From a virus (taxonomy: Duplodnaviria > Heunggongvirae > Uroviricota > Caudoviricetes): a stretch of DNA of 4,347 nt. The DNA is taken from the IMG/VR virus record IMGVR_UViG_2671180849_000006; one strand, written 5' to 3'. Positions 1,882 to 4,347 of this stretch are shown here, piece by piece. Every line of letters begins with the position of its first letter. The stretch's first letter is position 1. The translations under genes and the position numbers were made by a program. A model generated the notes under the pieces. It did not search any database, was not told where the DNA came from, and saw nothing but the letters and a program-made list of their open reading frames with translations.

Positions 1882-4347
1882 TCAACGAATACTGATGCCG
1901 GAAGCCGCTTTTTTGGTCACAATCACCGTACAGTCGGTGATATTGCCTGCCCCCTGATTGCCTTTCTGGAAAATCTTAAACTCCAGAGTGACGCTACCAC
2001 CACCACTAGGCATATCAATAACTGCACTGTAACTACCGGGAATGGCCCCTTTAGTTTCTCTGGATGCGATTAATACGCCGTTTTTGCGAACTTCAAAACC
2101 ATAACCCGTGTATCGCGTGCCTCCTGGGTTATTTCCGCTCCCCGGATCGTCATACGCTATACCGTTAAAAATAATGGGCGGAATAATAATCTGGCGGTCA
2201 AAGTTATGATCATCGCTGATGGTGACTGTAACCGTCCCGTTTGGTGTTTCCGTGTTACCCCACGTACCGACTTTTTTCGGGAAGGCTTTTGATACAGCTT
2301 TAACGAAATCCCCTCTGACCTGGGTCGCCTCCAGCATGCCCTTAATCGTACAGTTCTGGTTAATCGTGACATTGTTGAGCGTTCCTGAGTTCGCATTCAC
2401 ACTACCACTGATATCCGCATTTTTAGCGGTCAGCTTTCCGTCTGATGTCAGGGAAAATACCGGAGGACTGCCACCGCTGGTAATGGTGGGGGCCGTCAGG
2501 CGCTTCAGGAACACGTCGTTCATGAATATCTGATTGCCCTGCGCCACAAACATCGGCGTTTCATTCCCGTTTGCCGGGTCAATAAATGCGATACGGTTAG
2601 CGGCAACCAGAAACTGACTCAGTTTGCCTTCCTCCGTGTCCTCCATGCTGAGGCCAATACCCGCGACATAATGTTTGCCGTCTTTGGTCTGCTCAATTTT
2701 GACGCCCCACATGGCATTCCACTTATCGTTAGCATCCTTCCACTCTTTCGAAAACTGCTCCAGTTTGCTGGCGTTATCCTCCGTCAGGTCGACTTTTTCC
2801 AGCAGCTCTTTACCAAGATGGGATTCGGTTATCTTGCCTTTGAAAAAATCCAGGTAACCTTCCGCATCATCGCTCGCCCGACCGACGGCCTCCACGAATG
2901 CCGATTTGCCAACGGTGTTCACACTGCGGATATAAAAGTAATAATCATGGCCCGGTTTGATATTGATACTGGCGGCTATCCAGTACAGCCCCGTGCCAAG
3001 GTAGCGGGCTGTGGTTTCAACCTGCCTGATATCGGTAATCCGCGTTTCCGAACCACTGATATCCGCATTTTTAGCAGTCAGCTTTCCGTCCGGTGTCAGG
3101 GAAAATGCCGGTGGATTTCCACCGCTGGTAATGGTGGGGGCCGTCAGGCGCTTCAGGAACACGTCGTTCATGAATATCTGATTGCCCTGCGCCACAAACA
3201 TCGGCGTTTCATTCCCGTTTGCCGGGTCAATAAACGCGATACGATTGGCGGCAACCAGAAACTGGCTCAGTTTGCCTTCCTCCGTGTCCTCCATGCTGAG
3301 GCCAATACCCGCGACATAATGTTTGCCGTCTTTGGTCTGCTCAATTTTGACAGCCCACATGGCATTCCACTTATCGTTGGCGTCCTTCCACTCTTTCGAA
3401 AACTCCTCCAGTCTGCTGGCGTTATCCTCCGTCAGCTCGACTTTTTCCAGCAGCTCCTTGCCGAGATGGGATTCGGTTATCTTGCCTTTGAAAAAATCCA
3501 GGTAACCTTCCGCATCATCGCTCGCCCGACCGACGGCCTCCACGAATGCCGATTTGCCAACGGTGTTCACACTGCGGATATAAAAGTAATAATCATGGCC
3601 CGGTTTGATATTGATACTGGCGGCTATCCAGTACAGCGCCGTACCAAGATAGCGGGCTGTGGTTTCAACCTGCCTGATATCGGTAATCCGCTTTTCCGAG
3701 AACCAGAACTCAAACTGTACCGTCGGGTCATAAACGGCAAGATGCGGCGTGGCGGTTATCTGAAAATAGCCCGGTGTCAGCTCAATCCGAGACGGCGCTG
3801 CCGGTGCGGCAATCCGGAACGATACCGATGCCGGATCGCCCTGCTGTCCCCACGCATTTACCGCCCGGACAGTCAGCCTGTAGTTCCCCGGCGCCAGTTG
3901 CGTGAAGCGGTATGTGGTTTCCGTCGTCCTTGCCGTACTGACCAGCCGCTCACTGCCATCGTCCGCTGCCACGGTCAGGCGAAGCAGGAAGCTCACCCCC
4001 TTCACCACCTTCGGCGTGTCCCAGCGCGCCAGCACCTGATATTCCCCGCTGTCTGCGGTGACTTCGACAGTCAGGTGCTGCACCGCGGGCGGCGTGACGC
4101 CATTCACCGTGCCGCTCTGGTCGCCGTCAAAGTGCGCCCCGTTATCCACGATGGCTTCTTTTTCGGGTACATGCTGCACGGCGGTAATGGCATACGTGCC
4201 GTCGTCGTTCTCACGGATACTCACGCAGCGGAACAGGCGCTGGCGCAACGTCGGCAACTTCAGCCCCCATACGCTGTATTCGGCAACGCCGTCAGGAACA
4301 CGGCTCACTTTTACCTTCACGCCGTCGGTGACGGACTGGACCTCCAC
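1882..4347 (-). CDS. J: Host specificity protein J (central tail fibre / tip attachment protein J), C-terminal 821 codons; N-terminus lies beyond the window end
   Basis: Single open minus-strand frame to the window edge, ending at TGA 1884..1882. The translation contains segments I recognise as lambda gpJ-like (e.g. [64 protein letters not shown], and [213 protein letters not shown]). It lies upstream of lom as in lambda. Confidence 0.9.
1885..2403 (-). other. C-terminal ~173-aa module of J, putative receptor-binding domain, divergent from the lambda J C-terminus as I recall it
   Basis: After the second repeat unit the protein continues [172 protein letters not shown]. It shares only short motifs with the lambda J end ([21 protein letters not shown], a terminal ...K.A.GIS..). 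The DNA here looks more AT-rich than the upstream J sequence (by eye). In lambda the C-terminal ~250 aa of J determine LamB recognition (established knowledge). Confidence 0.6.
2404..3699 (-). repeat. In-frame direct tandem duplication inside J: two 648-bp units (2404..3051 and 3052..3699), ~96% identical, no indels
   Basis: Direct comparison of the two units at an offset of exactly 648 bp gives roughly 25 substitutions and no gaps (hand count). The protein shows two consecutive ~216-aa blocks ([17 protein letters not shown]...[12 protein letters not shown]), the second with ~8 substitutions (A->G, E->D, R->K, E->Q, A->G, N->S, A->V, P->S). The plus-strand shadow ORFs 2675..2857 and 3323..3505 are the same duplicated element seen 648 bp apart. 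Confidence 0.95.

Follow-up and report, generated by a model that had tools for sequence, protein, structure and literature searches.

We examined a 4,347-bp stretch of DNA, here called the window, which is recorded in IMG/VR as IMGVR_UViG_2671180849_000006 and is the entire contig CYDZ01000083.1 of the Escherichia coli draft assembly GCA_001284165.2. Every gene in the window lies on the minus strand. Positions 1882..4347 hold the C-terminal 821 codons and the stop codon of a lambda-like J gene, which encodes the tip attachment protein or central tail fibre; the reading frame is cut by the contig end at a position equivalent to lambda residue 533, and the product has been deposited as CTX49444.1 and WP_261309550.1, both identical to the translation. 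The assignment to J, proposed earlier by a reading made from the letters alone (the sequence-only reading), was borne out by the translation, by four Pfam families and by alignment to lambda gpJ. Within J, a block of 648 bp is present twice in tandem, at 2404..3051 and 3052..3699. Downstream of J lie lom (1212..1811, minus strand), which encodes a 199-aa outer-membrane beta-barrel protein of the Ail/Lom type, and the N-terminal 382 codons of a side tail fibre (stf-like) gene (1..1147, minus strand) that runs off the other end of the contig. The order J-lom-stf matches that of lambda, phage 434 and prophages, as expected of downstream synteny, and K/I-like genes sit upstream of J in the relatives of the window.

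The sequence-only reading had described the two blocks as an in-frame tandem duplication with no indels; its coordinates proved exact, although it left the minus strand unstated. Set against each other at an offset of 648, the stretches 2404-3051 and 3052-3699 need no gaps and disagree at 25 of 648 positions (96.1% identity); identity drops to 0.2-0.36 immediately beyond both ends. A low-complexity or chance repeat is ruled out by this length and identity together with the sharp ends. Copy 1 (3052..3699, minus strand) is N-proximal in the protein and corresponds to residues 217-432 of the fragment, and copy 2 (2404..3051, minus strand) is C-proximal and corresponds to residues 433-648. The proteins encoded by the two copies differ at 9 residues; 23 codons differ, and 16 of the 25 nucleotide changes are synonymous. 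The copies meet exactly between two codons, and no stop interrupts either of them before the one that ends the gene at 1882-1884.

On the plus strand the novel junction (3051..3052) reads ...GTTTCCGA on its left side, followed directly by ACCACTGATATC... on its right. It is blunt and carries no N, the letters of the window being A, C, G and T only, and the two parental contexts have 0 bases in common at this point. No microhomology or overlap that could explain the 3051/3052 junction was found: an 8-nt repeat nearby, GATATCAG, is left unused, and the best alternative junction overlap (ACCA) is 2 nt out of register. Microhomology at the join is typical of real duplications, though not obligatory.

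To place the block within the fibre protein we compared the fragment with Pfam models and with lambda gpJ. The fragment shows the series Ig_J, Ig_J_second (twice), Phage_Tail_Tip (twice) and Ig_GpJ_C, in the right order and all far above the cut-offs; Ig_J corresponds to FNIII-1 and Ig_J_second to FNIII-2, and only the two middle families are doubled. The part of J upstream of the duplication (3700..4347, minus strand) comprises the hub end, FNIII-1 and the first third of FNIII-2, and the C-terminal tail (1885..2403, minus strand) carries a receptor-binding domain (RBD; Ig_GpJ_C) of the phage-434 type, with 169 of 173 residues identical and 98.5% identity at the nucleotide level. Alignment to lambda gpJ (PDB 8iyk chain J, E = 0) places fragment residues 1-433 on lambda residues 533-965 and fragment residues 636-820 on lambda residues 952-1131. 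The block is thus present once in lambda gpJ, at residues 749-964, as the earlier reading had stated; the single block in lambda gpJ and in the phage matches rules out that canonical J is already a two-copy protein. The end of the block lies 36 residues ahead of the Pfam receptor-binding domain, consistent with its earlier placement just upstream of the receptor-binding module. Each copy covers positions 35-104 of the 105 in the Ig_J_second model and positions 2-130 of the 139 in Phage_Tail_Tip. In terms of the solved lambda fibre, the block takes in the alpha-helical shaft (residues ~809-861) in its entirety, preceded by the final two thirds of FNIII-2 and followed by most of the beta-prism, or "central straight fibre" (PMC11101478, PMC10721106). 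Because the breakpoints cut both the FNIII-2 and the tail-tip-fibre domains, the predicted product is a prism minus its end fused to an Ig domain minus its first strands. Judged by these predicted domain limits, the duplication is not a clean domain doubling, and the earlier description of a doubled domain is weakened: the block starts at position 35 of 105 in Ig_J_second and ends at 130 of 139 in Phage_Tail_Tip.

The distribution of the 25 differences between the copies is the most informative feature of the duplication. Counting block offsets along the plus strand (for copy 1, from 3052), the differences fall at offsets 24-213 and 300-640, and the 86 bases between them (offsets 214-299) are identical in both copies. 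When the copies are exchanged at this identical stretch, two natural alleles emerge. The first, X, consists of the first 300 nt of copy 2 and the last 348 nt of copy 1; it matches the one block of strain 602687 at every base and differs from the block of phage 434 by 2 bases. The second, Y, consists of the first 300 nt of copy 1 and the last 348 nt of copy 2; at least 15 complete genomes match it with one mismatch plus the first base. The Y block of these genomes adjoins the upstream J haplotype of the window, at 3-5 mismatches. Left unswapped, the copies still differ by 6-9 bases from the closest of ~11,400 natural places, the best natural single-copy match being 98.8% for copy 1 and 99.1% for copy 2. 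Copy 1 is accordingly Y-type at offsets 24-213 and X-type at offsets 300-640, and copy 2 is X-type at offsets 24-213 and Y-type at offsets 300-640; the change from X-type to Y-type in copy 2 falls within the identical stretch at 2618..2703, and that from Y-type to X-type in copy 1 within its counterpart at 3266..3351. The order of the parts along the plus strand is therefore 434-type end, X, switch, Y, then the junction, then Y, switch, X and the Y-linked upstream part. No private mutations were found in the window copies, and the copies are neither mutually closest nor united by shared private changes, as copies of one parent in a genuine duplication should be. Together these observations are strong but not conclusive evidence that the copies are reciprocal chimeras of the 434-like X and of Y, both of them common alleles with a single block, since natural J alleles are themselves very mosaic.

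Two bases of copy 1 depart from this scheme. At 3052, directly past the junction, copy 1 has A instead of the G of natural Y-type alleles; and at block offset 129 (2533 in copy 2, 3181 in copy 1) copy 1 is Y-type nearby but has the X-type base, as it does at 3052. These X-type bases may reflect natural mosaicism, or they may be left over from the making of the join. We considered the conversion of a single N to A at 3052, where natural Y has G, and set it aside as speculation, no step being known for such a conversion.

The flanks of the duplication are also of different kinds. The upstream part of J (3700..4347) has 33-38 mismatches to prophages bearing the 434-type end, and no single J gene in the complete genomes was seen to combine a 434-type end with the upstream haplotype of the window. 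Both kinds do occur together in one genome elsewhere: the chromosome NZ_CP148334 carries a Y-type prophage and a prophage with the 434-type end, the block of the latter being itself an X/Y mosaic, and match tables suggest that NZ_CP148463, NZ_CP148445 and others likewise carry both types. We also asked whether the breakpoints coincide with natural mosaic boundaries of J, which would act as branch points in an assembly graph. They do not; the boundaries lie 53-76 nt from the block on its RBD side, and at about block offset 394.

The sequence-only reading had proposed looking for the two-copy form elsewhere. We searched with the whole window, with each half, with junction queries of 160, 50 and 26 nt, and with proteins of 94, 300 and 821 aa, and found no second carrier in the genome, phage, metagenome and protein collections covered. 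Among the best whole-window matches listed, from 5,426 complete E. coli genomes and 50,697 phage records, every one extends over 3,699 bp, the single-copy length (4,347 minus 648); the best identity in complete genomes is 98.3%. The 160-nt junction query gave only two-piece matches spanning 647 bp and no intact junction, and a junction-centred 50-mer, which cannot seed from one half, had 0 matches in the 5,426 complete E. coli genomes. The junction 26-mer was not found in IMG/VR, in GTDB representative genomes or in JGI metagenome contigs. In a protein database of 5.8 billion clusters, both copies were spanned by the two products of this contig alone, and all other proteins covered 50-53% of the query; a 94-aa query returned short proteins only and missed the contig's own product, so that its negative result is weak. 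The match span was single-copy in all 80 IMG/VR relatives retrieved, and each of 87 natural blocks compared, mostly from these 80 loci, was present in one copy. No circulating two-copy allele was found among the complete genomes, phages, IMG/VR, GTDB representatives, metagenome contigs and proteins, and no independent sequence in the collections searched reproduced the junction, although such reproduction would be expected of a genuine duplication. Apparent +117-nt variants among the IMG/VR matches turned out to be merely longer alignments with no insertions. Separately, in a few J alleles (NZ_CP116411; phage cdtI, AB285204 17388-18118; phage phi458) the block ends lie 731 bp apart rather than 647 bp, a spacing that suggests a natural 84-bp (28-aa) insertion in the block region.

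These results can be explained in several ways. The reading we favour, to which we give an even chance, is that the tandem duplication is an assembly chimera and would be a property of the contig rather than of the J gene of the cell. The source isolate would probably hold at least two lambdoid prophages, one with a phage-434-like allele X (434-type receptor-binding end, lom and stf) and the other with the common allele Y and its different upstream J haplotype, both residing in the same genome. Short-read assembly or scaffolding would then have threaded pieces of both alleles together, joining [stf-lom-RBD-X...Y] end to start with [Y...X-upstream J] and leaving no gap character, and the ~650 bp common to both pieces would appear twice. 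Each real J would keep the block once, and no longer fibre would be produced. Several features of the window are of the kind expected from such an event. It is a short draft contig in sequence that is multi-copy in genomes: both contig ends lie in sequence that is multi-copy among E. coli genomes, and the number of places with J sequence per complete E. coli genome has a median of 2 and reaches 17. It is the sole carrier found, its copies have a chimeric X/Y make-up, and prophages with the X end and of Y type share a genome elsewhere. The flanks come from different prophage types, and the breakpoints lie inside two domains and match none of the mosaic boundaries seen in natural J. A precedent exists in the Shigella sonnei draft contig FUBH01000078.1, described below. 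The copy divergence of ~4% had earlier been taken to exclude an assembly artefact; this argument does not hold, because joining two paralogous J alleles of one genome yields that level of divergence, and the Shigella contig contains such joins. The authors of a widely used pipeline have noted that its greedy scaffolding and gap filling can produce false joins (PMC5320598). A link of the present contig to the Sanger pipeline would be a guess based on the accession style.

Other observations, however, weigh against an assembly origin. Neither a gap character nor an overlap, of the kind that marks pseudo-duplications, is present at 3051/3052, and the Shigella precedent retained its Ns. De Bruijn and overlap assemblers cannot form such a blunt join without spanning reads. 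GapFiller, for its part, requires an overlap of at least 10 nt for gap closure (PMC3446322). The allele switches occur only in the 86-nt common stretch and not in longer ones of 116 and 174 nt, which are harder to phase by short reads, and no obvious graph branch point coincides with either breakpoint. Preservation of the frame would, for an artefact, be a 1-in-3 chance. Finally, by analogy, the in-frame duplication in the Salmonella protein WP_301553412.1 (see below) indicates that real duplications may be possible in this module.

The principal alternative is a genuine, recent and strain-private rearrangement between two J alleles in one cell, which we regard as a serious possibility, although short of probable. 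Two routes can be envisaged: the 434-like allele could have broken inside the common 86-nt stretch, with outward copying on Y from both ends and then end joining; or a duplication could have arisen first in Y and been moved into X by gap repair. The product would consist of FNIII-1, FNIII-2, helical shaft, beta-prism, truncated FNIII-2, second shaft, second prism and the 434-type RBD, and could be functional or just tolerated in a prophage. Such an event would account for the blunt, N-free junction, which normal assemblers obtain only from spanning reads, and for a frame that stays open across both copies. Moreover, an arrangement in which Y sequence lies inward of X sequence and both switches share one 86-nt interval would be the outcome of a single templated repair at one break; natural J alleles, to judge from their mosaic haplotypes, recombine all the time; and in Salmonella the module has independently been duplicated in frame, at a microhomology. 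On the other hand, the rearrangement is known from one short draft contig only, and it needs an illegitimate join without microhomology in addition to inter-allelic copying, all recent enough for no private mutation to have appeared. The folding of the trimer is doubtful with FNIII-2 cut at 35 of 105 and the fibre domain at 130 of 139, and proven scaffold-join pseudo-duplications in J illustrate how contigs of this kind can arise.

A mixed origin, which we consider very doubtful, would combine both processes: a real Y-Y tandem duplication with near-identical copies would have been mixed with X by the assembler, so that the junction would be real and the 4% divergence and the flanks artefactual. 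This would fit the Y-type sequence on both sides of the junction (2704-3351) and would supply a source for the junction k-mers, which must come from somewhere. It would, however, require double mis-phasing at the shortest, most easily bridged common stretch together with correct phasing at longer ones; two bases characteristic of natural Y are absent from copy 1 (offsets 0 and 129); and no Y-Y duplication was found in the complete genomes or in the 80 IMG/VR relatives. An evolved, selected domain duplication defining a longer-fibre variant of J, as the sequence-only reading implied, in favour of which one could cite the open frame and a 4% divergence that is mostly synonymous (16/25), is barely credible and appears effectively refuted by the haplotype analysis, given that all 25 differences are pre-existing polymorphisms of two common alleles rather than post-duplication divergence, that no collection searched contains two-copy relatives, and that the breakpoints ignore domain limits.

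Of the possible origins, an assembly chimera or a one-off rearrangement is thus more probable than the evolution of a longer tail fibre. We think it unlikely that the contig is correct and that virions carry a central tail fibre in which two shaft and beta-prism modules stand in series, with a truncated FNIII-2 between them, ahead of the 434-type (OmpC) RBD. If this were so, the natural fibre would be longer by roughly one shaft plus prism, the receptor-triggered twist and shaft-flip signal described for lambda (PMC11101478) would have to pass two modules, and the phage would offer a natural test of length and register in the triggering of DNA ejection. A real rearrangement would represent strain-private inter-allelic recombination giving a two-module J, useful for the lambda signal-transmission model, and yet would still concern one isolate, with no sign of spread or selection. 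If the duplication is instead an assembly chimera, as we favour, it follows that the prophage tail-fibre genes of short-read drafts can hold in-frame pseudo-duplications that enter RefSeq and UniRef (WP_261309550.1, CTX49444.1), and that a copy divergence of a few percent is no proof of a real duplication.

The closest complete relatives are phage 434 and lambdoid prophages whose tail-fibre genes have cif, nleH or espW effector genes as neighbours, and the window probably derives from an effector-carrying lambdoid prophage like those of enteropathogenic or enterohaemorrhagic E. coli. In the closest complete prophages, type III effectors lie directly past the tail-fibre genes: cif and nleH in one (L002, 504-2457), espW in another (L004, 1-350). 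The counterpart of the stf-like gene in the relatives is annotated "prophage tail fiber N-terminal domain protein". In the window its N-terminal part contains a long stretch rich in Ala, Ser and Glu and then collagen-like Gly-X-Y repeats (45-nt period at 112-202), and the contig terminates within the Gly-X-Y repeat; compared with its closest relative, the gene has 6 mismatches grouped at 36-59, right by the contig end. The fibre of phage 434 directs binding to OmpC (PMC11101478). With an RBD of the 434 rather than the lambda type, the prophage should share the receptor of phage 434, stated to be OmpC in the same study.

Comparison with known systems places the J of the window among its relatives. 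Lambda gpJ (PDB 8IYK, 8XCG-8XCK) has the same domain order and is ~97% identical over lambda residues 533-965, so that its solved structures already define the fold, but contains residues 749-964 once where the window J contains them twice, and its RBD is of the LamB-binding type, whereas that of the window is not (~40% identity in the second aligned segment). Phage 434 (h434 host range; OL657226) is close in the RBD tail, with the 169 identical residues in 173 noted above, and in lom and stf (96% identical); its J differs in having a single block, and the upstream J of the window is only 94% identical to it.

Two further sequences resemble the window in carrying part of J more than once. In the Shigella sonnei draft contig FUBH01000078.1 (L172, GCA_900159905.1), three overlapping J segments with offsets of 2072, 1392 and 3464 stand in tandem, 98.7-99.6% identical to one another, with blunt joins and one N each at 2997 and 4581. 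Its J region is a clear scaffold-join pseudo-duplication, and yet a protein annotated "host specificity protein" (SJH76934.1, 1,195 aa) reads through one of the joins, where the codon GCN gives Ala. The contig shares with the window a multi-copy J in a short-read draft, tandem copies that are 96-99.6% identical and represent different alleles, and blunt joins free of overlap; it differs in that a single N marks each join, while the window junction has none. The partial J of Salmonella enterica WP_301553412.1, whose UniRef entry lists 6 members, contains a separate in-frame tandem duplication of ~183 aa with slightly different copies. A search with its junction pattern gave chance matches in unrelated genomes only. 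Its breakpoints differ from those of the window, the join of NADI to RPGRDYYFY lying in a 7-nt microhomology, ATATCAG, which occurs at both natural sites (L092, 5016-5022 and 5565-5571). Nevertheless, it is the same module, consisting of part of FNIII-2, the helical shaft and the beta-prism, that is doubled in this protein and in the J of the window.

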